Origin: an uncultured bacterium
GTDB lineage: Bacteria; Babelota; Babeliae; Babelales; Babelaceae
Direction: 5' to 3'
Length of the DNA stretch: 64,000 nucleotides
Assembly (NCBI GenBank): GCA_963713855.1
Contig: OY970209.1
Span: 193,071-257,070 of the forward strand
Part shown: piece by piece, positions 7,856-33,604 of the stretch
How the letters are laid out: each line of letters starts with the position of its first letter
Numbering within the stretch: the stretch's first letter is position 1
Position numbers and translations under genes: made by a program
The notes under the pieces: model-generated
What the model was told of the DNA's origin: nothing
What the model saw: the letters and a program-made list of their open reading frames with translations, nothing else
The model's database searches: none

Positions 7856-9418
7856 ATGTTTTATTCTTTTTCTCGGCGCCTTGCCTATGCGACGCTTATT
7901 ACGGTTTTTATAGTAAGTACTGGTGAAGTATTCGGAACTATAGCGCCTACTTCACCTAAAAAAATCGTTGTTGTCTGGTCTAAGGGGGGTAAAGCACACG
8001 AGTCGATGCTAAAAGCGCTTGATGATTTAGGAGATGGATATACGCTTATTCCTCTTAATCCTTTTGACAGCTTATGGACTGCAGATGACGCCGGTCGAGA
8101 GGCAACAGATGAGGTTATCAACGATCTTGCTTCCATATTAAATTTACCTCCTCTTAACGGAAAAGCGGTCTATAACCTCTTCAGACACCGTGATCTTGCA
8201 TCATCTCTCACGCTTGGTTTTGAGATGGCTAAATGGCTTGGAAAATCACCCAAAAACACTTTAAAGCTCCTTTTTAGTTACAAAGACCTCGTTCAAGAAA
8301 ACCTATCCGGTTTATCTGATACGATCAACGAAATTGCAAGTAAAGGCGGAGAAGATTTTTACAATTTCCTCCTTCGTAACGATCAGATAGAACTTGCTAA
8401 TAGTTTATTTAAAAAGACTGCTCAAGACATTGTCGATAATGAGGAGATGGTCGAAGAACGATTCAAAGACTATTTTGAATCAGAAAAGCCCGATTTGGTA
8501 ATTTCGGTCATGCCTCTTTTTAATAGCGTTATTTATAAAGCAACTGAAGCTTTAGAGATACCTTTTTTACTGATAGCTCCAGATTTTGATATTAGTGAGC
8601 ACTATTTTCCTGGAGCTAAGCCCGCAAACAGTAAGCATTTTAAATATACGTTGCCCCTCAAAGATGCGAGTCTCGAACGGAAAATAGAAAAAGCAGGAAT
8701 ACCAAAAGAACTTTGTGCTTTACATGGTTTTCCCCTCCGTTCACATTTTCTTGAGCCAAAAGATAAAACCGAACTCAAAGAGCAGTTTAATATTCCATTC
8801 AATAAGCCTGTTATTATGCTTCTTGCAGGTGGATCTGGTGCTTATAAAATGCAGACGCATCTCGAGCATCTAATGCATACCAAGTACCCCATTCATATTA
8901 TTGCGTGCTCAAGTACTAACGATGAACTTGCTCAAGCGATAGAAGAGTATGCAGAGGACTTACCTGATCATATTACACTAACACATGTTCCATACATGGA
9001 AAAAATATCTGATATGATGGCGGTTTCAGACGTTCTTATTACAAAGTCCGGACCATCTTCGCTTTGTGAAGCATTTCAACTCCAAATACCCGTCATCGTT
9101 GATGCAACTTCTACCATTCTAGATTGGGAAAAAAGCCATGTTAATCTTGTCGAAAAACGTCGGTTAGGCAAGGTCATAAGAAATATGAATGAGCTTGATA
9201 GCGCATTAGATACAATATTTCACGACAAAAAATATATAGACCAAGTCAAAGCATCGCTGACACATTTTGACAATAGTGACTTCATCGTCCGGCTAAAGGA
9301 ACTTATAGCACAAACTATTACTCAATCTGAAAGCAAAAAAAGCCTGGGTACTACCATCGTAGTGAGCACTCTTGTTCTTGCAAGCGCCGTTTTAGCAGTA
9401 CTAAAGCAACGCATATGA
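7856..9418 (+). CDS. Glycosyltransferase family 28, monogalactosyldiacylglycerol synthase / UgtP-like, with C-terminal TM
   Basis: 520 aa. LLAGGSGAYK..., PIHIIACSSTNDELAQ..., MMAVSDVLITKSGPSSLCEAFQLQIPVIV match MGDG-synthase / MurG-like C-terminal domain motifs. Hydrophobic C-terminal tail. Confidence 0.65.
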   Translation: MFYSFSRRLAYATLITVFIVSTGEVFGTIAPTSPKKIVVVWSKGGKAHESMLKALDDLGDGYTLIPLNPFDSLWTADDAGREATDEVINDLASILNLPPLNGKAVYNLFRHRDLASSLTLGFEMAKWLGKSPKNTLKLLFSYKDLVQENLSGLSDTINEIASKGGEDFYNFLLRNDQIELANSLFKKTAQDIVDNEEMVEERFKDYFESEKPDLVISVMPLFNSVIYKATEALEIPFLLIAPDFDISEHYFPGAKPANSKHFKYTLPLKDASLERKIEKAGIPKELCALHGFPLRSHFLEPKDKTELKEQFNIPFNKPVIMLLAGGSGAYKMQTHLEHLMHTKYPIHIIACSSTNDELAQAIEEYAEDLPDHITLTHVPYMEKISDMMAVSDVLITKSGPSSLCEAFQLQIPVIVDATSTILDWEKSHVNLVEKRRLGKVIRNMNELDSALDTIFHDKKYIDQVKASLTHFDNSDFIVRLKELIAQTITQSESKKSLGTTIVVSTLVLASAVLAVLKQRI

Positions 9419-14161: not shown

Positions 14162-14854
14162 TTGTCATGCACCCAATATAAAGCTACAATAAAGGCAATA
14201 ATATACATCCTAAAACCTGATAGTGTGCCTATGAACAATACTACCACTCAGCCTGCTCAACCATCTTCCCTTCATTATGCAGAAGAATATGTTATGGTCA
14301 TCAAGCGCTGTGACCTTTTTTTGAATGAGGAGGGTTTTCAGGGGATACTTTCGACAAATGTGGAACCCTATCTAGATCGCATCCACACCTTACATTGCTT
14401 CTTTCCCCGCTCTAGAATGGAGACTGATCCTACCTATAAGCAAATTATTCCTTACATGGTCTTTAAGTATTCTGACCGCTACTTTCTTATGCAAAGAACT
14501 CCCGCATCTGGAGAGCAACGCCTTAAAGATAAATTCACTCTCGGTATCGGTGGCCACGTACGCATGGAAGATCTTACCGACAATAGCTTATGGAGTTGGG
14601 CTTCAAGAGAATTTGAAGAAGAAATCGAATACAAAGGAAATTTAAAGATTTCAACACTAGGCATCCTTAATGATGACTCCAACAGCGTTGGTCAGGTGCA
14701 CGTGGGACTTGTGCTTCTTTTGGTAGGCGATTCCCCTGATATAAAGGTCAAATCTGAAATGAAGTCGGGCGTTCTTGCAACACTAGAGGAATGCAAAGCG
14801 CGCTATGAGGCATTAGAATCCTGGAGCCAGATAGTTTTAAATGCTCTACGATAG
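14162..14854 (+). CDS. NUDIX-like hydrolase (divergent Nudix box)
   Basis: GIGGHVRMEDLTDNSLWSWASREFEEEIEY approximates the Nudix box Gx5Ex7REUxEExGU (final G not conserved). Alternative start MNNTTTQ at 14231. Confidence 0.4.
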   Translation: MSCTQYKATIKAIIYILKPDSVPMNNTTTQPAQPSSLHYAEEYVMVIKRCDLFLNEEGFQGILSTNVEPYLDRIHTLHCFFPRSRMETDPTYKQIIPYMVFKYSDRYFLMQRTPASGEQRLKDKFTLGIGGHVRMEDLTDNSLWSWASREFEEEIEYKGNLKISTLGILNDDSNSVGQVHVGLVLLLVGDSPDIKVKSEMKSGVLATLEECKARYEALESWSQIVLNALR

Positions 14855-14894
14855 ATTTTGTAAAGCCACTCATCGAGAAGACTGTGCTAATTCA

Positions 14895-14918
14895 ACATCG
14901 AATATTAAACTAACACAC
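14895..14918. repeat. Left copy of a ~24-38 bp direct repeat (ctgtgct.att.aacatCgaatattaaactaAcaca) abutting the stop codon of the AAA ATPase gene
   Basis: Seen directly. The extended 38-bp alignment 14881-14918 vs 16113-16150 is about 33/38 identical, with a 13-bp perfect core gaatattaaacta. Confidence 0.6.
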
Positions 14919-16130
14919 CTAGCTTTTCTTGTAGAGCTTTGCAACAAGTTGACCTGCAAATTGCCAGCTTATGATGTTCCCACGAGTTCTTACTTGATTT
15001 GCTTGACCACCGTAGACGACATAGCTATCAGATGGTTTTGTACCAGATAATTCATTCCACTGGGCGAGGCCTTTAAAAAAATCTAATGAGATAGTTTGAG
15101 AAGATTTAATTTCGATAGGATAAAGTTTCGCTTCAATCTCTAGAATACAATCAACCTCTATCCTCCCATTACTATCGCGCCAAAAATAAATCGGTGGTCG
15201 CTTACCGAGGTTATAAAACTGCTTTGCAAAGTCAGTAATTATAAGGTTTTCAAAAAGAGCTCCTCTAAAGGGACTTTGAGCTAGAATTTTTGAAGACGTT
15301 ATGCCAAGTAAGCTGCAGGCAACACCGGTATCATAAAAATAGAGTTTTGGAGTTTTTGTAAGACGCTTATTAAAATTATTAAAATGCGGCTGTAACACAA
15401 ATACTACATAGCTTGCCTCTAAAATAGAAAGCCATCTATGAACAGTTGGCAGGCTTATCCCACACTGCGTGGCTAGATCGGACAAATTTAGTAGCTGCCC
15501 GATTCGTCCCGCGCACAAAGACAAAAACTTTTGAAAAGTTCTCAAATCACCAACGTTAACTAATTGACGAACATCTTTTTCCACGTAACTGTGAATGTAT
15601 GAAGAAAAAAAATCTTGAAGAGCAAGTTCCTGATCATAAAGTCGTGGATAGCCTCCTTTTATAACCGCGTCATTGATAAACTCAGGCCTTATCTTGTTTT
15701 CTTTAAGCTCATGAAGCGAAAGCGGTAACAAGGTAAAAATAGCAGTTCTACCGGCCAGTGACTGGGTTATTGCTTGATTCATCAAAAAGTTGTGTGAACC
15801 GGTCAAAATGAAATATCCAGCTCGCTTTTTTGTATCAACTTCAAGCTGTATGTAAGATACAATGCTCGGTACATACTGAAATTCGTCAAGGATAACTCCG
15901 TGCTTGTTTTCGTTGTCACTTAAAAATCCTCGAGGATCGCTCGCAGCAAATTCCCTTATTGCTGGATCCTCAAAGGAAATATAGCTATGTTTTTTAAATA
16001 CACTCCTGACGAGGGTTGTTTTTCCTGATTGCCTCGGCCCAAGAACAACAACAACGGGAAATTTTGCACCCCTAACTAAAGAGGCTTTCAAATCTCTTTT
16101 AAACATAATAAACCTGTGCTGATTTAACAT
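14919..16130 (-). CDS. AAA+ ATPase with DUF4143-type C-terminal domain (COG1373-like)
   Basis: 403 aa. Walker A VVLGPRQSGKTT; C-terminal region homologous to the remnant at 22778-23271. The first 6 codons lie inside the flanking repeat; an alternative start at Met9 (16106). Confidence 0.75.
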   Translation of the reverse strand: MLNQHRFIMFKRDLKASLVRGAKFPVVVVLGPRQSGKTTLVRSVFKKHSYISFEDPAIREFAASDPRGFLSDNENKHGVILDEFQYVPSIVSYIQLEVDTKKRAGYFILTGSHNFLMNQAITQSLAGRTAIFTLLPLSLHELKENKIRPEFINDAVIKGGYPRLYDQELALQDFFSSYIHSYVEKDVRQLVNVGDLRTFQKFLSLCAGRIGQLLNLSDLATQCGISLPTVHRWLSILEASYVVFVLQPHFNNFNKRLTKTPKLYFYDTGVACSLLGITSSKILAQSPFRGALFENLIITDFAKQFYNLGKRPPIYFWRDSNGRIEVDCILEIEAKLYPIEIKSSQTISLDFFKGLAQWNELSGTKPSDSYVVYGGQANQVRTRGNIISWQFAGQLVAKLYKKS

Positions 16131-16150
16131 TGAATATTAAACTAGCACAA
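16127..16150. repeat. Right copy of the direct repeat, overlapping the start codon of the AAA ATPase gene
   Basis: acattgaatattaaactagcacaa, 22/24 identical to 14895-14918 in the same orientation. Confidence 0.6.
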
Positions 16151-16399
16151 ATCTAATCTGAAGAATAGCTTTTTTAAAGCTGCTATCGTTTTATTGAAGA
16201 TCAACGCTATTAAAAAATCAATAAGATATAGAAAGCTACTCTTGCTGATTTTCTCGATCTAATACCCTTTTTCAAACACTACTCATAACATTTTTATTAA
16301 TCGCTTGCTTTATCTAATACCGGTTGTTAAAGTAAAAAAATATTTCAAGAAACTTCAGCACCCACCTATCTTCCAACAAAATATTGAAGAGAGAAGCAA

Positions 16400-18472
16400 A
16401 TGAACAAACTATTTCTTTCGGTGTCCTTTTTTTATGTTTTAGCTGTTCACTCGTTTGAGACAATAGCATTGACGGTAAGCACAACAGCTGACTCAGGCTT
16501 AGGTTCACTGCGTCAAGCAATCCTAGACGCTAACACTACACCGAACTCTACCATCACTTTTAGTATCGCAAGTGGTCATCAGGTTATTAGTCCTCTTTCG
16601 GCGCTTCCGGCAATTTCGGGAGCTGGTACCGTTATTGATGCAACGAGCCAACCAGGTTTTGTTAACACACCGCTCATAGAAATAAACGGTTCACAAGCAG
16701 GCGCAAACGTCATTGGTTTAACAACTCTAGCTGATAATTGCACTATTAAAAGTGTGATCATTAATAATTTCGCAGGATCGGGCATTCTCATATCAGGAAG
16801 TCAAAATGCTATCTTCGGATGCTTTATTGGTACTGATGCAACTGGAACTTTAGCCCAGCCAAACGAAGGAGACGGCATTGACGTCTTTAACGTTGCGGCA
16901 AGCTCTCTTACGGGAACAATTATCGGGTCTCAGACAAATGGACAAGGAAACCTCGTTTCTGGTAACGCAGGAATCGGTATTAACGTCTTTTCATCTGCAC
17001 CGACAAGCATCGATAGCACGACAATAGCTGGCAATGTTGTTGGAACAGATATATCAGGAAACAGCGCTCTTTCTAATGGCGGGGACGGAATTTTTGTCGG
17101 CGGATTTTCAGACATTTCAAACACCGTAATACGCGGTAACCTTGTCTCTGGCAATACTACAAGCGGCATCAACCTCAACATAGGAGCAGGCACCCTCGAT
17201 CAGACGATCATTCAAGGCAATTTGGTTGGCACCAATTTAGGAGGGACTGCCGCCATCGGCAATGGTCAAGATAGCGTTCAATTACTGGCAATTCAGACCG
17301 GTGTTATTCAAAATACCTTCATTGGTGGCTCAGGTGCCGGTCAAGGAAACGTTATATCCGGAACACTTAACTCATTTTCAGGAATAGGGGCTGTCACTCA
17401 AGACCCGGGATCTGTTATCGTTAATACGACTATACAGCAAAACTTGATCGGAACGAATGCTGCTGGCAATGCTCCGTTGCCTAACACCTTCAGAGGTATA
17501 TTTTTAATAAACACCGCTGGAAGTTTTAGTGATACAGTTATTGGAGGTGCAGGTATAGCGGGCAACGTTATTTCGGGCAATCATAACGATGGTATCGCCT
17601 TAGTAAACGGCGTTACTAAAACTGTTATTCGAGGAAACCATATAGGAACTGATATAACCAATAAACTCATTTTACCTAACGGAGTCTTTGGCATCGTTAT
17701 ACCTCAAGGAAACGGTATAACAGGCGCCACAGACAACACTATTGGTGGAACAATAAACGCACAAGCAAATACCATTAGTTTTAACAAAGCTGCAGGCATC
17801 TTCATAACGGGGCCTCTTAACGTTCGCAATACCATTATAAGAGACTCTATTTTTGATAACGGGCAAAGTGGTATTCTCCTTTCCAATGGAGGAAACGCAC
17901 AGTTACAAGCACCTACTATTAAAAAAGTAGCTCAGTCCCCTACGGCTTTAACAGTAACCTTTACCACACCATCCTCACCTGCTGGCTCTTTCAGGGTTGA
18001 ATTTTTTAATACCCTCGTCAATCGTCCAAACATAACAGAAGGACAAACATTCTTAAAAGCTCTTGCTTCCGTACCATCAGGAACAACAAGGACTATAACA
18101 ATACCAGGAAACTTTACGGGTTCAATAAGCGCCACCGCAACCCAACTTAATAGTCAAGGTGCACCAGGCAACACGTCGGAATTTAGTAGAGGTTTTTCCA
18201 TCAAAAAGCAAAAGTTGACCGTCGGCCTTAAACAAAAATCAGAGCCTAAGCCAAGGGAGGCGGAAGTCGTAACAAGTATCGAAGGAGGCGTCGGCTCTTC
18301 ATTCAGCCTTAAATGGTCTGATGGAAAAAAACAGCCCCATGTTGGTAAAACATCAACACGCTTGGTCAAAAAAGGTACAAACAAACTTTCAGTAGTTGCT
18401 ACCGACCTTACTACCAAAGCTCGGGCTGAGGACAGTATTAAGCTTAAATTTAAGCACCGCAAAAAGTGCTAA
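16400..18472 (+). CDS. Secreted parallel beta-helix repeat protein (adhesin / Pmp-like) with Lys-rich C-terminal tail
   Basis: 690 aa. Signal peptide, then many Gly/Asn-rich turn repeats (GNLVSGN, IRGNLVSGNTTSGINLN, IQGNLVGTNLGG, IRGNHIGTD) typical of right-handed beta-helix. No recognisable autotransporter beta-barrel. Basic tail KKQKLTVGLKQKSEPKPRE...KFKHRKKC. Confidence 0.6.
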   Translation: MNKLFLSVSFFYVLAVHSFETIALTVSTTADSGLGSLRQAILDANTTPNSTITFSIASGHQVISPLSALPAISGAGTVIDATSQPGFVNTPLIEINGSQAGANVIGLTTLADNCTIKSVIINNFAGSGILISGSQNAIFGCFIGTDATGTLAQPNEGDGIDVFNVAASSLTGTIIGSQTNGQGNLVSGNAGIGINVFSSAPTSIDSTTIAGNVVGTDISGNSALSNGGDGIFVGGFSDISNTVIRGNLVSGNTTSGINLNIGAGTLDQTIIQGNLVGTNLGGTAAIGNGQDSVQLLAIQTGVIQNTFIGGSGAGQGNVISGTLNSFSGIGAVTQDPGSVIVNTTIQQNLIGTNAAGNAPLPNTFRGIFLINTAGSFSDTVIGGAGIAGNVISGNHNDGIALVNGVTKTVIRGNHIGTDITNKLILPNGVFGIVIPQGNGITGATDNTIGGTINAQANTISFNKAAGIFITGPLNVRNTIIRDSIFDNGQSGILLSNGGNAQLQAPTIKKVAQSPTALTVTFTTPSSPAGSFRVEFFNTLVNRPNITEGQTFLKALASVPSGTTRTITIPGNFTGSISATATQLNSQGAPGNTSEFSRGFSIKKQKLTVGLKQKSEPKPREAEVVTSIEGGVGSSFSLKWSDGKKQPHVGKTSTRLVKKGTNKLSVVATDLTTKARAEDSIKLKFKHRKKC

Positions 18473-18628
18473 AAAATGTTTTCTTCTCAGCGCGCAAACG
18501 TTGAGAAATAAGTCGCTATTTGTTTTACACTGCTTTAAGGTGATGCGCTCGAATTCGTACTGCGATGAGCATGCGCGTTTTTAAAATTATCCATCTAGTG
18601 CAGGCCAGGTAACTACAATCGTTCCCGT

Positions 18629-20404
18629 TCAGAGTTCCACCACAAGAAGCGCATATTTTTTCTTATTGAGACTAGAGAGCCAATCAACAACATTTTGATG
18701 ATTATATTGTTTTGCAATATCAAGAGCTGTTTCGTTATTGCTAGTTTTGGCGTTAACGTCGGCACCATGGGCTACAAGCCATTGAACAACTTCCAGGCTG
18801 CCTCCTGTAGCAGCCAAGTGTATCGGCTGCCTGCCCTTTTCATCTTGAGCAATGACGCTGGCTCCTTGAGCAACAAGCCATCGAACTACTTCTAGCTTGC
18901 CTCCAAAAGCTGCATGGTGTATAGGCTGCCAGCTACTTCCAGCTTGGCCCTTGACGTTAAAGCCAACGCCATGGGCGACGAGCCATTGAACTAATTCTAG
19001 ATGACCCGCTGCTGCTGCTACGTGTATAGGCTGATGGCCTAGATACATTTTAGCGCTGATATCGGCTCCATGATTAACAAGCAATTTAACTACTTCTAAA
19101 TAGCCTCCCATTGCCGCCCAGTGTATAGGCTGGCTATCATCACGCCAACGAGCGTTGACGTCGGCTCCACGACTCAAAAGCCATTGAACGAGTACTAGAT
19201 AGCCTCCGCGAGCTGCCGCATGTATTGGATGCCAGCCATGTTCATTTTGAGCATTGACATCAACACCGTGGTCAACAAACCATTCAACTAGCTCTAGATG
19301 GTTCCCCGCTGCTGCCTCGTGTATAGCCAGCCAGCCATCTCTACCCCCAGCGTTAACATCGGCTCCATGGGAAACGAGCCATTCAATTACCGTTAAGTTA
19401 CCTCTTGAAGCCGCAGTATGAATAGGCCGTTCGCCATACTTTTGTGATGCGTTAACGTCAGCACCTCGCTCAACAAGCCATTGAATTACTTTTACATGGC
19501 CGCAACGAGCTGCCTCGTGTATAGGCTGTTCGCCATATTTATCTTGAGCATCGACGCTGACTCCATGATTCACAAGCCATCGTAGGTGAGCTAAATTTCC
19601 TGAGCGCGCTGCATCAAAAATGGTTATACCTGGGGGCGGTTTTTCCCCTTCTTCCCTTTTAGTCTCGTCTTCTTCTTGTCTAGTAACTCTCGTTTTTTTT
19701 TCTTCCTGAATCCATGGAGTCAATGCAGGCATGTCCAAGTGAAGAATGAGGGAATCTAGATGGGACGAGACATCATCTTGCTTCCTTCTTTCTTTTGAAA
19801 CAGCTGGGTTTCTACTATTACGGGCATTAACATTAGCACCATCTTGGGCAGTCTTGGTAAGTTTTTCTGAAGGCGCCATCGTAGGCCTACACCACAAACG
19901 CTCAGCTATCCCCATTCCTCTACTTGGCATTTGTATAGCCGGTCTATTCAATCCTCTAGGTTCAGTATTATTTCTTAAAGAAATTGACTGTAACAATTCT
20001 GCTGTGGCATCTACATGGCATTCCTCCAAGAAAAACGCCTGCACTTTTTCCTTGCGCTCTTCTAGAGCCAACATAAATGCTGTTCTGCCATCACCTGTTC
20101 TAGCGTTTAGGTCAGCTCCATGTTCTAGCAGTATTTCTACAATTACTGGGTCATTGGTCATTACTCCATGATGTATCGCTTGCCATCCCTGGTCATCGGT
20201 CACTGATAGATCTATTTCCGATTGACTGAGAAGCCTCATAAGTTTTACTATCTCTCCACTTTGTATATAGCCAATAAGGTCTCTTATCTGTGCTTTTTCT
20301 TGATGCTCCATACAGTTGGTTGAGATAACAAAGCAACTGAAAAAGGCGATTAATACTTTATATCTCTTTCCCACGCTTTTTCTCCCTTTAGTTCTTTCGC
20401 TCAA
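18629..20404 (-). CDS. Ankyrin-repeat protein with N-terminal signal/TM (eukaryote-like effector candidate)
   Basis: 591 aa. Two blocks of canonical 33-aa ankyrin repeats (G.QPIH.AA..GHLEVV.WLV..GADVNA), about 12 repeats, separated by a basic/acidic linker. Confidence 0.85.
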   Translation of the reverse strand: MSERTKGRKSVGKRYKVLIAFFSCFVISTNCMEHQEKAQIRDLIGYIQSGEIVKLMRLLSQSEIDLSVTDDQGWQAIHHGVMTNDPVIVEILLEHGADLNARTGDGRTAFMLALEERKEKVQAFFLEECHVDATAELLQSISLRNNTEPRGLNRPAIQMPSRGMGIAERLWCRPTMAPSEKLTKTAQDGANVNARNSRNPAVSKERRKQDDVSSHLDSLILHLDMPALTPWIQEEKKTRVTRQEEDETKREEGEKPPPGITIFDAARSGNLAHLRWLVNHGVSVDAQDKYGEQPIHEAARCGHVKVIQWLVERGADVNASQKYGERPIHTAASRGNLTVIEWLVSHGADVNAGGRDGWLAIHEAAAGNHLELVEWFVDHGVDVNAQNEHGWHPIHAAARGGYLVLVQWLLSRGADVNARWRDDSQPIHWAAMGGYLEVVKLLVNHGADISAKMYLGHQPIHVAAAAGHLELVQWLVAHGVGFNVKGQAGSSWQPIHHAAFGGKLEVVRWLVAQGASVIAQDEKGRQPIHLAATGGSLEVVQWLVAHGADVNAKTSNNETALDIAKQYNHQNVVDWLSSLNKKKYALLVVEL

Positions 20405-20743
20405 CGTACCAATAATTTCTCATTTCTCAAAATGTATGTTACTTATCAACGGTCGTTACGAACAGCGCTATCACCAAACCCCAGCGCTAACCAATTCAGT
20501 ACTTTCAATTTGAGAAAGACTCGGTTTTCCGGACTGATTTTCTTTTGATAACTAAGATATTCTGCAAACTTATGTAGTGGCTCATGTTTACCAATATAAG
20601 CTATTCTTGTATTTTTTATGAACCCGCTCTAAGATGGCGGTGTCTTGCATCTTGAGTTTATACGGCGATTAGTATGTGTCAAAATTATCTGCATTATTAG
20701 ATAGCTTAGGTAGAGATGCAGCGAATAATAGAAGGAGCTTTTC

Positions 20744-22732
20744 ATGGTGAAATACGGCCATCACATAGGCTTTATTATGTTAGCCAGTTTGACAATGCAC
20801 CTATCAGGTAAACGGGTGTTGCCTCAGTTTACGGGAACATGGTACGACCAAGCAGCGTTAGCAAAGTACGATGCCTGTGGTATTGCTTATTGGAATTATG
20901 TCCATCAAGCTAATGATAAAAATGTCATACTTGCTGCGCTCTTTCAAGCACTACCTATGTCTGCGCAATGCATTTGGAATACTCCCTATGAAGTTAATGC
21001 TGGGGTAAAAATGCCTACAACATTTCCTGGCAATTTCCCTGATTATAGCCAAATTATAAAGGACCCAGCTCAGCCAAGGGTTCAAACCTCACGCTCGGAT
21101 TGTATAAATGTTAAGACAAAGGCGATCGATAAGTATGCTTTTCTTGAGGTACAGCCGTCATATAGCTGTCCCAAGGATTCGGTGCATACCGGCGGTTTTT
21201 GTGCGGCAAACAGCATTTGTACCGCCGACGTGGTCGGTAGGGATTTGAACTATAAAGGTCTAGGTTGGTTAGGTCACATAGCTCTCGGCTTTCCATCAGG
21301 AAACGGAGATGAACAGAACGCTCAGGTACTTGAAGTTCTTAACCAACATCGCGTCATCAATTTTAATTCTCTCGGCTCGTTTAAAACAATAAGTCCTTAT
21401 TGGGGAGCTGTTTATGGCCTTGACGATTCTGGCTTTGTTGATCCTGTCAAAGCTAATAGTGTTATTAAAGCCGGCGTCGATCAAATGCAATTTGAGCCTG
21501 AGTATACCATGACAGCGCAGTGGCAAGCAGGGCACTATAGTCCACAACTTTTCTATGATCGAGTTCAGAATAAGTTTATTACTGAATCAGCCATAGTGCG
21601 AGGAATTTTCCGCTGTGATACTTTTGTCAACTATTGCTATAAAGTTGGGTTTGGAGTTCAATTACCTAAACCTGATAGATTCCTCGACGTATTACCTCGA
21701 TCAACATTTAATAGTTTCTCGTTTAAGCACGAGACCGCAAGCATGCTTACTGAAGGACGCATAGTAGCAGCTGAAGATTCTATAACCGCAGAATCTCGTG
21801 CTTCTAATCACACAGCTCGCTTCATATGGCAGTCTGCTCAGCAAGCTGATACTTACACTTTCTTAAATGCTATGGACGTTCTCAGTACTTTGGCTTCACA
21901 CGAGCTCATTCCGGATCTGATCCAAACTTTCAAAACTGAAAGAAACGCCGAAAAACGAAAGAAGTTGGTAACTGCCATCGTAAAATCTGCGCATGCCCTC
22001 AGCCAAGAAGGCACTATACACAATACCCAAAAGATAGAGGCTATTGTTGATGCTCAAGATTTTGTTTTGAAAGTGCTAGAAACTGAGTCAGATTTTTCAG
22101 TACTAGGTCATACCATATATCACACTTTAAGTATTTTGCCTAAGGATTGGGTACACTACGAGCTGATCTCTCACGCAATGAGTAGATTACAAGAACATCC
22201 GGTGATGGAGCATCGCTTGAGTAACGAAAAGAAATTTTTGATCTTACTCTCAATAGCTTTAGCCAACGATACTATGCAAACACGATTATTGCCAACGCTT
22301 CTGTTATCGGCCAAAAGCGATGACGAAAAAATAGCTTTTGACACGCAGCTTCTATTTATCCTCAGGCATCTTTTACCATCGACTATAGCGCCGCACGCTC
22401 AGGCTATGCTTGGCGACTATCTCAATGGAACAAATACCATGAACACTGTCGATCGTACTTTTGCTCTTGCTACTATTTACGGCGAGACCGGCGAGCTTCG
22501 TGAAAAAGAGTTAGCCCGTCTTATTGTTCACACATCGGATTCACAAGAGCAAGCTGAGCTTATCAATCACCTCGACTTAGGAGTTTTTTCTCATATCTCT
22601 AAGACTGATCAAAAGCTTCTTTATAAAAATTGCCATGACGGCTTTGTGCAAGCGTATAATACCGACAAAGAATATCTTTTCGGAACCGCAATGATGAAGT
22701 TGCATAAGGCAGGAGAGCTTTATCATTCTTAG
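20744..22732 (+). CDS. Large hypothetical protein with candidate LRAT/H-rev107-like (permuted NlpC/P60) domain
   Basis: 662 aa. LGWLGHIALGF (His motif), then about 100 aa later GIFRCDTFVNYCYKVGFG, resembling the NCEHFV..C.YG Cys motif of LRAT-family acyltransferases/phospholipases. Confidence 0.3.
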   Translation: MVKYGHHIGFIMLASLTMHLSGKRVLPQFTGTWYDQAALAKYDACGIAYWNYVHQANDKNVILAALFQALPMSAQCIWNTPYEVNAGVKMPTTFPGNFPDYSQIIKDPAQPRVQTSRSDCINVKTKAIDKYAFLEVQPSYSCPKDSVHTGGFCAANSICTADVVGRDLNYKGLGWLGHIALGFPSGNGDEQNAQVLEVLNQHRVINFNSLGSFKTISPYWGAVYGLDDSGFVDPVKANSVIKAGVDQMQFEPEYTMTAQWQAGHYSPQLFYDRVQNKFITESAIVRGIFRCDTFVNYCYKVGFGVQLPKPDRFLDVLPRSTFNSFSFKHETASMLTEGRIVAAEDSITAESRASNHTARFIWQSAQQADTYTFLNAMDVLSTLASHELIPDLIQTFKTERNAEKRKKLVTAIVKSAHALSQEGTIHNTQKIEAIVDAQDFVLKVLETESDFSVLGHTIYHTLSILPKDWVHYELISHAMSRLQEHPVMEHRLSNEKKFLILLSIALANDTMQTRLLPTLLLSAKSDDEKIAFDTQLLFILRHLLPSTIAPHAQAMLGDYLNGTNTMNTVDRTFALATIYGETGELREKELARLIVHTSDSQEQAELINHLDLGVFSHISKTDQKLLYKNCHDGFVQAYNTDKEYLFGTAMMKLHKAGELYHS

Positions 22733-22777
22733 AAGCCTGAGGACCACCGAAGAAGATGGGGCGATCATCGCTGACAC

Positions 22778-23271
22778 TTGGTCGCCCCTAAAATCCCAAC
22801 GTTTCTTGAAGGTAGAGCCAAATACTATAAGAATTTCAGTAAACGGTTGATTAAATCACCAAAGTTATTCTTTTATGATACTGGTCTAGCCTCCGATTTA
22901 CTTGATATTGAAAAGCAACTTAATTCCCACTACTTAAGGGGTGGACTTTTTGAGTCTTTCGTTATCTCTGAGCTTTATAAAAGCTTCTATAATGCTGACA
23001 AGGTTCCTCACTTTTATTTTTGGCAAGAGCACGAGGTTGACTATATTATTGAAAGAGGGCAAGACTTATTCCCTTTGGAAATAAAAGCTGGATTAACAAT
23101 TACCCCTGATTATTTTAAAGGGCTTAACTATTGGAATAATCTCAGAGATGAATCCCAATAAAGGATTTGTAGTGTATGGAGGAACTCAAGATTTATTTAG
23201 GTCGCTAGGTAATATAATGAGCTGGCGTAATATTTCAAATATTTTGGCAAGAACAAAAGACGAATCCTGAA
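22778..23271 (+). pseudogene. Remnant of a DUF4143 AAA+ ATPase gene (C-terminal third only, with an internal frameshift near 23160)
   Basis: 22778-23161 translates to SPKLFFYDTGLASDLL...FYFWQEHEVDYIIE...LEIKAGLTITPDYFKGL, homologous to the C-terminal domain of the 14919-16130 protein. A different frame from 23164 continues GFVVYGGTQDLFRSLGNIMSW..., matching that protein's last 35 aa. No Walker A half upstream. Confidence 0.7.
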
Positions 23272-23318
23272 TACGTTTTTACCTGAAAGGTCCTTGGCTA
23301 AAGTTCTCGATGGAAAAA

Positions 23319-24074
23319 TTAAACCGAAGTGGCATTAATAAGAAATAAAGGATGCCAACGTGTATACAGCTCGTCTATCTCAGCCTTGTCTCCTGGCAAC
23401 ACTGAGAAAAAAAGCCGCTCTGTATGAATTGGAGGCTCCGAATGGATAGCTGAAGCATGCTCATCGCCAACTATAAAAAAAGCACCAAAACCTCGGTTCG
23501 GAGATTCAGCCTTAGTGCCATCTAAAAGCTTGTTGAGTGCAATTTGATTTCGCTCGTTTACAATGAATGTTTCTCTTAATTCCTCAGGTAATCTATAAAA
23601 GAGAGTTTGTGGACCTTTTAAAGCCGCGACAAATTTGACGGGAAATCCAGAATAAAGAGGATAGTAGTATCCATCTACATGCCAACGGGGTTGATCAAAA
23701 GCAGGGCTAGGTACGAAAGAGCGGACACATACCCATGCCGTTTCTTTACCACACGCTTTTGCAACTTTTAGAGCTGTCTCGAGTATTATTTCGGTAACCG
23801 TTTGTATGGCGCGCTCATCATCATTACCTATGGCACGTAAAAACGCTGGCAACTCATGCTTAAGGACATTTAAATCACCAAACCGGTCATAGCTTTTTTG
23901 AGCATCAACTTTTAATGTGCGATCGATAAAAGAAAGCACATGAGCAGGTATTTCAAGATCAACATATACAAAGCCGTTGCTTGCATTCAGGTTTTGAGGC
24001 CCAGAAATCAGTTGGATATTCTGAGCACCAAGAAAAAAAGAAAATGAGCAGATAAAGACCAATTTATTAAACAT
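23319..24074 (-). CDS. Hypothetical secreted protein
   Basis: The ORF extends to 24146, but Met25 (24074) gives signal peptide MFNKLVFICSFSFFLGAQN and avoids overlap with the downstream gene. No recognisable domain. Confidence 0.5.
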   Translation of the reverse strand: MFNKLVFICSFSFFLGAQNIQLISGPQNLNASNGFVYVDLEIPAHVLSFIDRTLKVDAQKSYDRFGDLNVLKHELPAFLRAIGNDDERAIQTVTEIILETALKVAKACGKETAWVCVRSFVPSPAFDQPRWHVDGYYYPLYSGFPVKFVAALKGPQTLFYRLPEELRETFIVNERNQIALNKLLDGTKAESPNRGFGAFFIVGDEHASAIHSEPPIHTERLFFSVLPGDKAEIDELYTRWHPLFLINATSV

Positions 24075-24105
24075 AGCTCCCTCAATGTATTCTAAAGCAA
24101 GTTCT

Positions 24106-25293
24106 TTACGCTGATTCACCATCGTCAAATATATCAAAAGTATCAAAGATGCTTTCGTGTTTCCATGTCGGGCTCCAGTTGTGTCTAATAAAGCTTTGAA
24201 TGGAGACGATAGAGTTATAAAAATTGTCAGAGTAACTCAAAGACTCACTTAAATACTCATGTGCGGTCTTTATGCGAACTTTGATAGAATTTTTCCCACA
24301 AAGAATATAAGCGCGAAGACCGCTATAAAACGGATGATTATTGATCTGTTGCAAAAGAATAGGCGCAAGAACGACCACGGGCAACTCAAGCATCTCATGT
24401 AACGCGTTTTCCTGAAGCGCGAATAAATTGTAATGATTAACCGCTTGACCATTCTTATTAACCCATATGCCAACATCTGCACGCTGAAGCTTTGGATTTT
24501 CGTGCTTAAACGTTCTCAAATCGATAATTTCCGACATGTCTGCATAACTTTGACCTTGTGTCGTAACCGAGTCAAGCGTCTGAATCGAGTCACCTTCAGG
24601 TGAACGAAAGAGGATGATCGATTTAAACATGGGCGACAGAATCGAATCAATCATTTCGACTTGTATGGGGGTACCATATAAACAGAGCTGATCTATCAAA
24701 AGATGGCGTTTATAATGCTCTTCAGCCCTCATAATGCCAAGCGCCACGTTACCTCCATGACTATAAGCATTGATTCTTAAAAGAGGCTTAACGCCATATT
24801 TTTTTTCATATTCGTCTACCCAGTCTGCTAGAGCCAGATAGAGCTTAAAACTCTCTTCCATGCGATTAAAGGAGTCAAGCATGCCTGACCAGCCAAAAAG
24901 AGCATAATAATCTTTCTCCGAAGCAAAACCTGAAACACGTGCAAGTTCATCATAACCTGCCAGCATGTAGTAGGCCCCAAAACGAGAACGTTCTCGTGAA
25001 AGGTTTCCCTTACGAGCAGCTTCAATAAGCGAAGTAGGAACTTCTCGAAAACCAGGACTCAACATCATATTTTGCTGATAGGTATCAGGGTCATTTCTAT
25101 CACGTAAGAGGAGCGTTTCATAGTTTCCGCCCTTTTTTGCGCGCCCATCCCCCCAAAACCATTTCGTATCCACAAACGCTAAACCTGGTTTTACAGTGCC
25201 GTGTATAAAAACGGTCAGCGTTGGTGTAGCCTCAATAAAGCCTGAAGATATGAGAATATACAGAATGAAAAATGGTATTTTTTTTAAAAACAT
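24106..25293 (-). CDS. Secreted lipase/esterase-like alpha/beta hydrolase (paralog of 32684-33604)
   Basis: 395 aa. Signal peptide, and shared motif INAYSHGGNVALG (nucleophile-elbow-like). Paralog elsewhere in the window has VLAYSHGGNVALS. Confidence 0.55.
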   Translation of the reverse strand: MFLKKIPFFILYILISSGFIEATPTLTVFIHGTVKPGLAFVDTKWFWGDGRAKKGGNYETLLLRDRNDPDTYQQNMMLSPGFREVPTSLIEAARKGNLSRERSRFGAYYMLAGYDELARVSGFASEKDYYALFGWSGMLDSFNRMEESFKLYLALADWVDEYEKKYGVKPLLRINAYSHGGNVALGIMRAEEHYKRHLLIDQLCLYGTPIQVEMIDSILSPMFKSIILFRSPEGDSIQTLDSVTTQGQSYADMSEIIDLRTFKHENPKLQRADVGIWVNKNGQAVNHYNLFALQENALHEMLELPVVVLAPILLQQINNHPFYSGLRAYILCGKNSIKVRIKTAHEYLSESLSYSDNFYNSIVSIQSFIRHNWSPTWKHESIFDTFDIFDDGESA

Positions 25294-32683: not shown

Positions 32684-33604
32684 ATGCGGCTTTTGAATTT
32701 TTTTATACTATTTTTAACTTTTATCGTACTCAAAGAAAGGTTGCTTGCTCGACCTAAAAAAACCAAAGTTAAAGAGGAAGAACCGCTCTTTTTGCCACCA
32801 CCAGGTAAGCCAATTACGATCTTTATACCTGGAGGTGCAAAGCCGGCTTCATCGTTCGTACCGTTTTTACAGGATGACTGTCCTCCGGGATTTTATCTTA
32901 TAAAAGATCTCCAAGGGTGGACTAATTGCCTTGGCAGAAAAGTGGCCTCAGCTCTTTCAAAAGCTGATCCTAAGCGTTTTTGTTATGATTCTTTTTACGT
33001 CTTTGGCTGGTCTAGTCTTTTGAGTTCCATCGAGCGAGAAAAGTATGGGGGGCAGTTTTATAGGCACCTTAAGATCCTACGCGAAGATCCACGTTATGCA
33101 AATACTCCGCTTACTGTATTAGCATACAGCCACGGTGGCAATGTAGCATTAAGCGCGGCCATTGCGGCTTTGGAGGTCAAGGATGAATCACCTCTTATTG
33201 ACCGGCTCATTACGATGGCTTGTCCGGTTGTTGCTCATACGGAGGACTACATCAATTCATCAATATTTAAGGAAGTCTTTGTGCTTTTTTCTAAAAGTGA
33301 CGTCTTTCAGGCTTCTGATCCCCAGGGCCTACAGCCAAGAAATGACACCTGTTTTACACCTCCATTTTTGTCCAAAAGGCGCTTTGACCCAAGCTTTAAA
33401 ATGGTACAAGCTGAAGTCAAATATAACAATCGTTCACGCACTGGACACCTAGGATTTATTAATAAAAACTTCTTACGCTATTTACCTCAAGTCCTTGATT
33501 TCCTAATCGACCAGCAAGCTAGCCTTAGGAAGGACAAAAAAAGCTGTTATTGCGTAAGCATCAATACAAAATATAAAACTGTTGAAGAGTGTAAAAAAGT
33601 CTAA
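32684..33604 (+). CDS. Secreted lipase/esterase-like alpha/beta hydrolase (paralog of 24106-25293)
   Basis: 306 aa. Signal peptide; VLAYSHGGNVALSAAIAAL conserved with the paralog. Confidence 0.55.
   Translation: MRLLNFFILFLTFIVLKERLLARPKKTKVKEEEPLFLPPPGKPITIFIPGGAKPASSFVPFLQDDCPPGFYLIKDLQGWTNCLGRKVASALSKADPKRFCYDSFYVFGWSSLLSSIEREKYGGQFYRHLKILREDPRYANTPLTVLAYSHGGNVALSAAIAALEVKDESPLIDRLITMACPVVAHTEDYINSSIFKEVFVLFSKSDVFQASDPQGLQPRNDTCFTPPFLSKRRFDPSFKMVQAEVKYNNRSRTGHLGFINKNFLRYLPQVLDFLIDQQASLRKDKKSCYCVSINTKYKTVEECKKV

Follow-up and report, generated by a model that had tools for sequence, protein, structure and literature searches.

A duplicated palindrome, probably an operator, at a PDC-S01-type ATPase gene of an uncultured Babelaceae bacterium

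A stretch of 64,000 nucleotides from an uncultured bacterium of the Babelaceae (contig OY970209.1, positions 193,071 to 257,070 of the forward strand; below, the window) contains a minus-strand gene for an ATPase of the PDC-S01 type, flanked by two direct repeats. Each repeat is one copy of a 35-bp imperfect palindrome, here called pal. In the reading that we favour, at a probability near 0.6, pal is an operator placed over the extended −10 promoter of this gene and probably bound by the gene's own product, and the repeat at the 3' end is a duplicate of that operator. A symmetric protein, probably the ATPase itself, would bind pal and repress the gene; the 3' copy would act as an auxiliary operator or a roadblock for cooperative binding, in the manner of lambda OL/OR or lac O1/O2. 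That the ATPase is the binder, that it represses the gene, that the DNA loops and that the 3' copy acts as a terminator are steps that we infer from sequence.

The palindrome and the gene it accompanies

On the plus strand the repeat occupies 14882-14917 and 16114-16149, in the same orientation (36 nt, 32/36 identical), with a perfect 13-bp core, GAATATTAAACTA, at 14900-14912 and 16132-16144. A first-pass annotation of this DNA had described it at 14881-14918 and 16113-16150 with about 33/38 identity; repeat, orientation and core stand, and the identity over those coordinates is 32/38. With three mismatches allowed, the degenerate 36-mer has two sites in the window against 0.00 expected from shuffles. 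Likewise, a covariance model run over the 64 kb recovers only the two copies (the next best match has an E value of 0.13). Partial matches at 8784-8795 and 8970-8985 lie inside coding region and were put down to chance. A check for dispersed repeats (repetitive extragenic palindromic sequences, REP; bacterial interspersed mosaic elements, BIME; miniature inverted-repeat transposable elements, MITE) turned up no copy in the window beyond these two, nor any elsewhere in ~400 kb of related loci.

Read on the gene strand, the unit has the form TGTGCTA-N21-TAGCACA. The 5' copy (16115..16149, minus strand; TGTGCTAGTTTAATATTCAATGTTAAATCAGCACA; 50.2 bits, E 1e-10) is the proposed operator over the promoter, and ends 8 nt ahead of ATG 16106. 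The 3' copy (14883..14917, minus strand; TGTGTTAGTTTAATATTCGATGTTGAATTAGCACA; 44.8 bits, E 3e-9) lies 1 nt past the stop codon (14919-14921), directly after the same gene as originally noted, within the 64-nt gap that separates two convergent genes. The copies are 1232 bp apart. Their similarity stops exactly at the pal edges, with none in register beyond: gapped alignment of the 200-nt flanks gave results at or near shuffle level and out of register.

The flanked open reading frame (ORF), with its AAA_14 and DUF4143 domains, spans 14919..16130 at its longest, and only for that frame (ATG 16130) does the repeat cross the start codon and encode the first six codons, as the annotation had it. 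The true start is ATG 16106, giving a coding sequence at 14919..16106 (minus strand; 395 aa plus stop; COG1373, PADLOC PDC-S01). An independent gene call, made on another assembly of the same genome, has this start and this length, and the homologues all align from the equivalent methionine (MxxKRD...). A Shine-Dalgarno-like AGG (16113..16115, minus strand) stands 6 nt before ATG 16106 and overlaps the last base of pal; in homologues, a similar GGA or GGG directly follows pal. Because of this start, and because the homologues' palindromes all lie upstream of the coding sequence, the 5' copy is non-coding.

Homologous loci were drawn from reference genomes (29 loci), metagenomes (27 loci), exact-protein look-ups (8 loci) and plasmids (9 loci). 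Among genome and metagenome loci, 33 from several phyla have a palindrome of 35-36 bp, its ends of the TGTG..CACA type, placed 0-62 nt ahead of the start; of the 9 plasmid loci, some of them from cultured bacteria, 7 have one of 27-43 bp at 0-9 nt. A site of pal geometry precedes ~40 AAA_14/DUF4143 genes across phyla, including those on plasmids of cultured Runella and Emticicia, and nearly every homologue of ~50% identity or more carries a palindrome of 35-36 bp span between a few and ~60 nt ahead of its start. The half-site varies with the clade of the protein. The window's clade has TGTGCTA, and related clades have TATGCTA and CGTGCTA; many Dependentiae have TGTGTAA, TGTGCAA or TGTACAA, and the Runella and Emticicia plasmids TATGTAA.

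The covariance model (A2/R1) was built from 22 palindromes of class A, the class to which the window's copies belong. When it is run over 382 kb of flanks, all strong matches adjoin ATPase genes, with a sole exception at a related locus discussed below (L059); the model also detects the Runella and Emticicia palindromes (E about 1e-5). Across phyla only pal and the gene co-occur, and the neighbours differ everywhere. Since these two alone travel together, the binder of pal is most economically the gene's own product. Our literature search found no published description of the motif, and the searchable papers do not mention cis-elements of PDC-S01.

A Desulfuromonadales-type clade of homologues (L026-L030 and L052-L056; ~46% identity) has no 35-bp pal; ~40-70 nt upstream of the ATPase start it carries instead the conserved motif CATACAnATTTCTGTTTGTATTGACAATCAGTAT, in which a short inverted repeat (ATACAAA-N6-TTTGTAT) adjoins a consensus TTGACA. 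In the TGTGTAA class (L009-L015, L023, L041, L043 and L048) the interior is not self-complementary and carries the conserved motif AAGTCGAGTTACAC, which yields a third half-site, TTACAC, 9 nt before the right arm; alternative pairings are possible. A Moraxella bovis plasmid (L083) has a near-perfect palindrome of 43 nt (1407-1449; ATCCTAGTTTAATTTAAGATGTAATCTTAAATTAAACTAGGAT) placed 6 nt ahead of a distant homologue (35%). The core of this palindrome, CTAGTTTAAT, is similar to the interior of the window's pal, and a recombinase-family gene is directly upstream.

Promoter overlap, symmetry and the presumed binder

The left arm of the 5' copy contains an extended −10-like sequence, TG-C-TAGTTT (pal positions 3-11; 16139..16147, minus strand). 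Throughout class A these positions read TGnTAnnnT, an extended −10 element, with T6, A7 and T11 invariant or nearly so. TTG stands at offset −19/−18 from pal in 12 of 18 class-A loci, against a background of 2.5% and leaving an 18-nt spacer (P 3.7e-12; 1.4e-10 after correction), and TAnnnT abuts pal in 12 of 33 loci, against a background of 9% (P 2e-5); these −35 and −10 statistics take the loci as independent, and some loci are related. Examples of the −35 element are TTGACA (L008), TTTACA (L066) and, in many others, TTGCxx. The transcription start site (TSS) would be expected near the centre of the palindrome.

In this layout the left arm is the −10 region and the right arm, though conserved, has no promoter role. 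That both arms are nevertheless kept points to an operator laid over the core promoter. Two properties expected of such an operator were found in pal: symmetry kept in evolution, and overlap with the core promoter at a fixed position.

The symmetry is maintained by compensatory change. In the alignment 87.8% of cells are paired. Changes on both sides occur in 26 cells, where 9.3 were expected (0/500 shuffles). Outside the window, mismatches between the arms comprise 12 G.T and 11 A.C, and so show no strand bias, and in the TGTGTAA class complementarity is confined to the outer 7-9 bp. The absence of strand bias and the complementarity of the outer base pairs only both speak against an RNA hairpin, and fit a double-stranded site read by a two-fold symmetric protein. 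The idea that the 5' copy works mainly as an RNA hairpin was rejected, since the family is not biased towards the sense strand and many of its members cannot form the whole stem. Moreover, the promoter layout puts the TSS inside pal, so that the 5' hairpin would not be transcribed whole.

The presumed binder has a predicted DNA-binding architecture. Both Pfam domains are matched (AAA_14, PF13173, 2.5e-27; DUF4143, PF13635, 1.3e-49), as is the PADLOC profile PDC-S01 (PDLC04790; 3.8e-98, 327 bits). Among 40 homologues, Walker A (GPRQSGKT) and the DE of Walker B are invariant or nearly so; in the PD-(D/E)XK motif (D..ExD..ExK), residues E317, D319, E332 and K334 are invariant and D311 nearly so. 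The AlphaFold model is confident (predicted local distance difference test score 88.6; predicted template-modelling score 0.90). Its fold matches include the archaeal AAA+ ATPases SSO1545 and PAB2304; Orc1/Cdc6 on origin DNA; STAND ATPases; and the nuclease domains of Can2/Cdn1. These structural matches suggest an AAA+ ATPase followed by a winged helix and a PD-(D/E)XK domain. A sequence search of the PDB returned no solved homologue, and the matches are at fold level only.

The gene is, with good support, an accessory, horizontally spread, defence-candidate ATPase: a single-gene unit of patchy distribution. The first-pass annotation had remarked that COG1373-type ATPases often stand in defence or mobile contexts; the PDC-S01 match, the absence of any orthologue above 67% identity and the unrelated contexts of near homologues agree with this. 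The closest orthologues are at most 67% identical, with thousands of relatives at 60-67%; near homologues are each single, and each sits in a different gene context. No relatives were found on viral contigs, and the base composition of the gene and of the surrounding island is not anomalous.

A second, distant member of the family lies some 7 kb away as a decayed C-terminal fragment (22778..23271, plus strand), with a frameshift and without the N-terminal ~240 codons. The annotation had called it correctly: tblastn aligns 22823-23143 and 23139-23267 at 49% and 35% amino acid identity, and Pfam reports DUF4143 at 2e-24. At only 49% identity it is a distant paralogue and not a recent duplicate. 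The covariance model finds no palindrome beside it.

Second copies, locus history and alternative readings

Extra pal copies are a recurrent habit of the closest clade. Among the eight closest homologous loci (the window included), which share 65-76% mutual identity in a star-like pattern, five have two pals. In L066 one pal precedes the start by 17 nt and the other follows the stop by 2 nt (copies 33/35 identical), in a genome and among gene neighbours unrelated to the window's; a 207-aa neighbour seemingly shared with the window is an unrelated protein of coincidental length. Both copies are upstream in L069 (73 nt apart) and in L074 (72 nt apart); the spacers of these two loci are unrelated, and the −35 element of L074 falls between its copies. 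In L070 two upstream copies are 149 nt apart. All other loci (~35, counting the 9 plasmid loci, where no second copy was found) have a single pal. The two pals of one locus (31/35, 33/35) resemble each other more closely than do pals of different loci (~26/35).

A different hairpin abuts the stop codon in a plasmid of Runella sp. SP2 (pSP2_2; L076, 2599-2631): a near-perfect 33-nt palindrome, TAACCATAAGTGCAAAACTTGCACTTATGGTTA, starts at the ATPase homologue's stop codon and is unrelated in sequence to that locus's 5' palindrome. Hairpins next to the stop may thus recur also at loci with no duplicated pal.

The position of the window's 3' copy is anchored by the convergent 207-aa gene (14231..14854, plus strand), which is syntenic with BrnQ-LeuRS in all relatives of the locus; the relatives were found through BrnQ. 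(The 207-aa protein has no Pfam match at E<0.01; by eye it carries a Nudix-box-like signature, GIGGHV...REFEEEIE.) In the outgroups L062 and L064 two S49 peptidase genes follow the 207-aa gene, and neither pal nor the ATPase gene is there. In the closest relative, L059 (88% BrnQ identity), only 108 nt (9033-9140) separate the 207-aa gene from a 405-aa gene whose window orthologue lies at 24106-25293, and the ATPase gene is absent. The window thus holds ~9.2 kb of extra DNA (~14918..24105). Besides the ATPase gene with its 5' pal, this DNA encodes a beta-helix protein, an ankyrin-repeat protein and a protein of 662 aa, and it includes the DUF4143 fragment as well as an ORF of 275 aa. The stretch from the 207-aa gene to the 405-aa gene is a variable hot spot.

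At the position that matches the window's 3' copy, L059 carries a solitary, perfect, AT-rich palindrome (9072-9106; TAAACTAGCTTAAAATTCAATTTTAAGCTAGTTTA), identical in an independent assembly (L060, 1906-1940). Although left out of model building, it scores 31.7 bits with the pal model (E ~6e-5 to 4e-6), and its core is 19/22 identical to the window's 5' copy (1/1000 shuffles). Palindromes of the terminator type in these genomes are GC-rich and do not resemble it. Compared with the window's copies, its ends have gone from TGTG..CACA to TAAA..TTTA by several symmetric, compensatory changes; either it is still selected for symmetry or hairpin formation, or it was 'corrected' by template switching. 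Since its left flank and that of the window's 5' copy share no significant homology (80/1000 shuffles), the site counts as a suggestive relic or scar and falls short of a clean empty site. The empty-site comparison that the annotation had recommended thus yields a relative that lacks the gene and keeps a related palindrome, but with a non-homologous left flank it cannot demonstrate excision or insertion at pal.

An inversion linking the 3' copy to the paralogue at 22778 was considered and rejected: re-inverting 14882-22777 would bring the two into tandem but fails to restore the ancestral synteny of L059, L062 and L064, and the supposed breakpoints carry no inverted repeat. None of nine neighbouring ORFs encodes a recombinase, integrase or transposase. 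Elsewhere in the interval, the ORF at 18629-20404 (minus strand) contains eight tandem 99-nt units (18750-19582; 61-73% identical to a reference unit); the units correspond to ankyrin repeats in its 591-aa product, typical of host-associated Dependentiae. The 405-aa protein is of a secreted type and has a partial paralogue ~8 kb off, at 32987-33319 (29% over 115 aa), also present in L059 (1910-2245).

Several observations weigh against the operator reading, in addition to the relatedness of loci behind the promoter statistics. The window's own −35 (CTATTC) is degenerate and weak, and a consensus promoter scan called no promoter at pal in the window. The half-sites are ~28 bp apart centre to centre, which is unusual for a simple dimeric helix-turn-helix protein. 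Most loci manage with one pal. In two unrelated genomes a copy abuts the stop codon 1.2 kb downstream, where a purely regulatory model predicts none. The sense strand gives the better fold for both window copies (6 G.U against 1 A.C), which leaves room for a role at the RNA level. Finally, PDC-S01 is itself uncharacterised: its one tested representative did not appear among the candidates found to protect E. coli (10.1101/2024.09.26.614923).

The bracketing copies lend themselves to another account, in which the gene is a mobile or recombining single-gene cassette, pal is its recombination site, and exchange between two pals integrates or excises the gene and leaves a solitary pal behind; the exchange might possibly be catalysed or targeted by the cassette's own Orc1/Cdc6-like protein, with its AAA+, winged helix-turn-helix (wHTH) and PD-(D/E)XK parts. 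The gene is bracketed alike in the window and in L066, where the 3' copies follow the stop by 1-2 nt and the neighbours are unrelated; L059 and L060 lack the gene and keep one pal-family palindrome, atypical of the local terminators, at the orthologous spot, where the outgroups have neither. The patchy gene with its 60-67% identity plateau, the concerted evolution of the two copies of a locus, and the sharp edges of the duplicated unit all suit a cassette as well. Against it stand the ~35 single-pal loci and the three two-copy loci with both pals upstream; the lack of integrase or transposase among the neighbouring ORFs, since PD-(D/E)XK nucleases cut DNA and do not rejoin it; the insignificant left-flank homology of L059; and an excess over L059 that amounts to 9.2 kb with five other ORFs, not to the 1.2-kb gene. 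In addition, the promoter explains the position of the 5' copy, base composition is not anomalous, and an ordinary deletion would equally leave pal beside the 207-aa gene. We regard a cassette as unlikely.

The first-pass annotation had favoured a long target-site duplication or cassette boundary around a mobile ATPase gene, and had named the same gene at orthologous loci with no repeat as one observation that would count against it. This is largely what was found, as ~35 homologous loci carry the gene with a 5' copy only. The idea of a mobile cassette keeps some force from the bracket in L066 and the solitary palindrome of L059, but is not supported as a general explanation. Under the operator reading, direct pal repeats would predispose the gene to deletion, with a single pal remaining as in L059.

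It is also quite unlikely that the 3' copy is the relic of a tandem duplication, that is, the promoter and operator of a second ATPase gene since deleted. Such a relic would fit the promoter elements carried by pal, an ATG that follows the 3' copy by 9 nt (8 nt after the 5' copy), and the decayed family member at 22778. However, on neither side does similarity extend past the pal edges, tblastn detects nothing ATPase-like beside either copy, and no −35 lies at the right distance upstream of the 3' copy. The frame that follows it, 47 codons long, is antisense to the conserved gene and not preserved in L059 (there the ATG is directly followed by TAG), and L066 has the same arrangement with nothing downstream.

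The folding of both copies suggests an RNA-level account: a stabilising stem-loop at the 5' end of the message and a terminator or stabiliser at the 3' end, their similarity being incidental (shared structure, or a REP-like element). On the sense strand the 5' and 3' copies fold at −18.8 and −15.7 kcal/mol (z −6.9 and −3.9), against −9.2 and −1.6 kcal/mol on the plus strand, so that the 3' hairpin forms on the ATPase sense strand only. The two derived stem changes in the 3' copy both retain pairing through G.U on that strand, although two such outcomes arise by chance about 1 time in 4, and the solitary copy of L059 is a perfect hairpin between convergent genes. In the family as a whole there is no sense-strand bias and many members cannot form the full stem; with a TSS near the centre of pal, the 5' stem would be incomplete. 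A terminator scan was negative at both copies, where the hairpin is AT-rich with neither T-run nor U-tract and hence unlike an intrinsic terminator. Rfam gave two sub-threshold snoRNA matches, neither on the repeat, and with two copies in 64 kb the element does not look like a dispersed repeat in the window. An explanation by hairpins alone seems rather improbable. The operator reading can accommodate part of it: in this genome the 3' copy may also serve as a 3' stem-loop of the ATPase mRNA, at which the retained G.U pairing weakly hints.

Very unlikely is a combination in which pal is both operator and cis-site of a minimal self-mobilising single-gene element, whose Orc1/Cdc6-like protein would bind the inverted half-sites and bring about excision or integration, or break-induced copying, at pal. 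This would explain the brackets in the window and L066, the concerted evolution of copies, the solitary pal of L059 and the wide horizontal spread. Chance similarity of two AT-rich stretches, for which nothing but the composition speaks, is refuted by the shuffle and covariance-model statistics and by the presence of the element in ~40 other loci.

Known systems and the PDC-S01 family

The gene is a member of PDC-S01 by profile match, both Pfam domains, Walker and PD-(D/E)XK residues, single-gene organisation and patchy distribution; the description of the family includes neither a promoter palindrome nor its duplication. DUF4143/COG1373 has been placed in the PD-(D/E)XK superfamily, function unknown (PMC3424549), and PDC-S01, an ATPase fused to a PD-(D/E)XK domain, is very abundant (PMC12988326; PMC3424549). 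PADLOC-based surveys place it among the commonest candidate defence genes of prokaryotes, fourth in one of them and unvalidated (PMC12988326).

The regulatory layout that we propose is of a familiar type, with one site on the core promoter and another hundreds to thousands of bp off. The lambda operators OL and OR flank cI-rex, as the pal copies flank their gene, and lac O1 pairs with O2 inside lacZ. The closely spaced pairs of L069 and L074 (72-73 bp, ~7 helical turns) resemble classical cooperative operator pairs. In contrast to lambda and lac, the presumed binder is an AAA+/nuclease protein and not a small repressor, the site is 35 bp long with widely separated half-sites, and the distal copy abuts a stop codon; looping is here a proposal only.

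Archaeal Orc1/Cdc6 (PDB 2qby) offers a parallel for recognition, given the predicted AAA+ and winged-helix fold of the ATPase. Orc1/Cdc6 genes adjoin inverted origin recognition box (ORB) repeats around an AT-rich stretch, and the half-sites of pal likewise flank an AT-rich centre. The likeness is at fold level only (template-modelling score about 0.25 overall); the ATPase has an additional C-terminal PD-(D/E)XK nuclease, and pal lies on a promoter.

The bracketed gene also recalls integron cassettes, in which a single ORF is followed by an imperfect palindrome and preceded by a similar one in direct orientation. The attC site consists of R''/L''-L'/R' boxes with a GTTRRRY core, and usually measures 57-141 bp. 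Pal, at 35 bp, is shorter and has no GTTRRRY or RYYYAAC core; the window has no integrase among the nine neighbouring ORFs and no array, and most homologues have a 5' copy only. A target-site duplication or solo-repeat scar is suggested by direct repeats flanking an acquired gene and by a solitary copy at the same site in a relative without the gene. However, target-site duplications are short (2-14 bp), non-palindromic and specific to the site, whereas pal is a conserved, functional palindrome that travels with the gene; neither transposase nor terminal inverted repeats were found at the locus.

Together, the sequence comparisons suggest that pal, a regulatory motif with no earlier description, is of a familiar kind, that of palindromic operators which overlap a promoter and have auxiliary copies, and that it accompanies an abundant, uncharacterised family of defence candidates. 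The promoter palindrome would provide a first concrete, testable handle on the mechanism and control of PDC-S01. It predicts a DNA site recognised by the winged helix, and tight autoregulation of the sort expected for a potentially toxic nuclease. The same layout is predicted in cultured hosts, on the Runella, Emticicia and Moraxella plasmids. The second copies, whether bracketing the gene or solitary at an empty site, are the only hint of an element that mediates gain or loss of the gene; were the self-mobilising reading true, PDC-S01 would count, at least in part, as a selfish mobile gene, and defence would not be its role, or not its only one.

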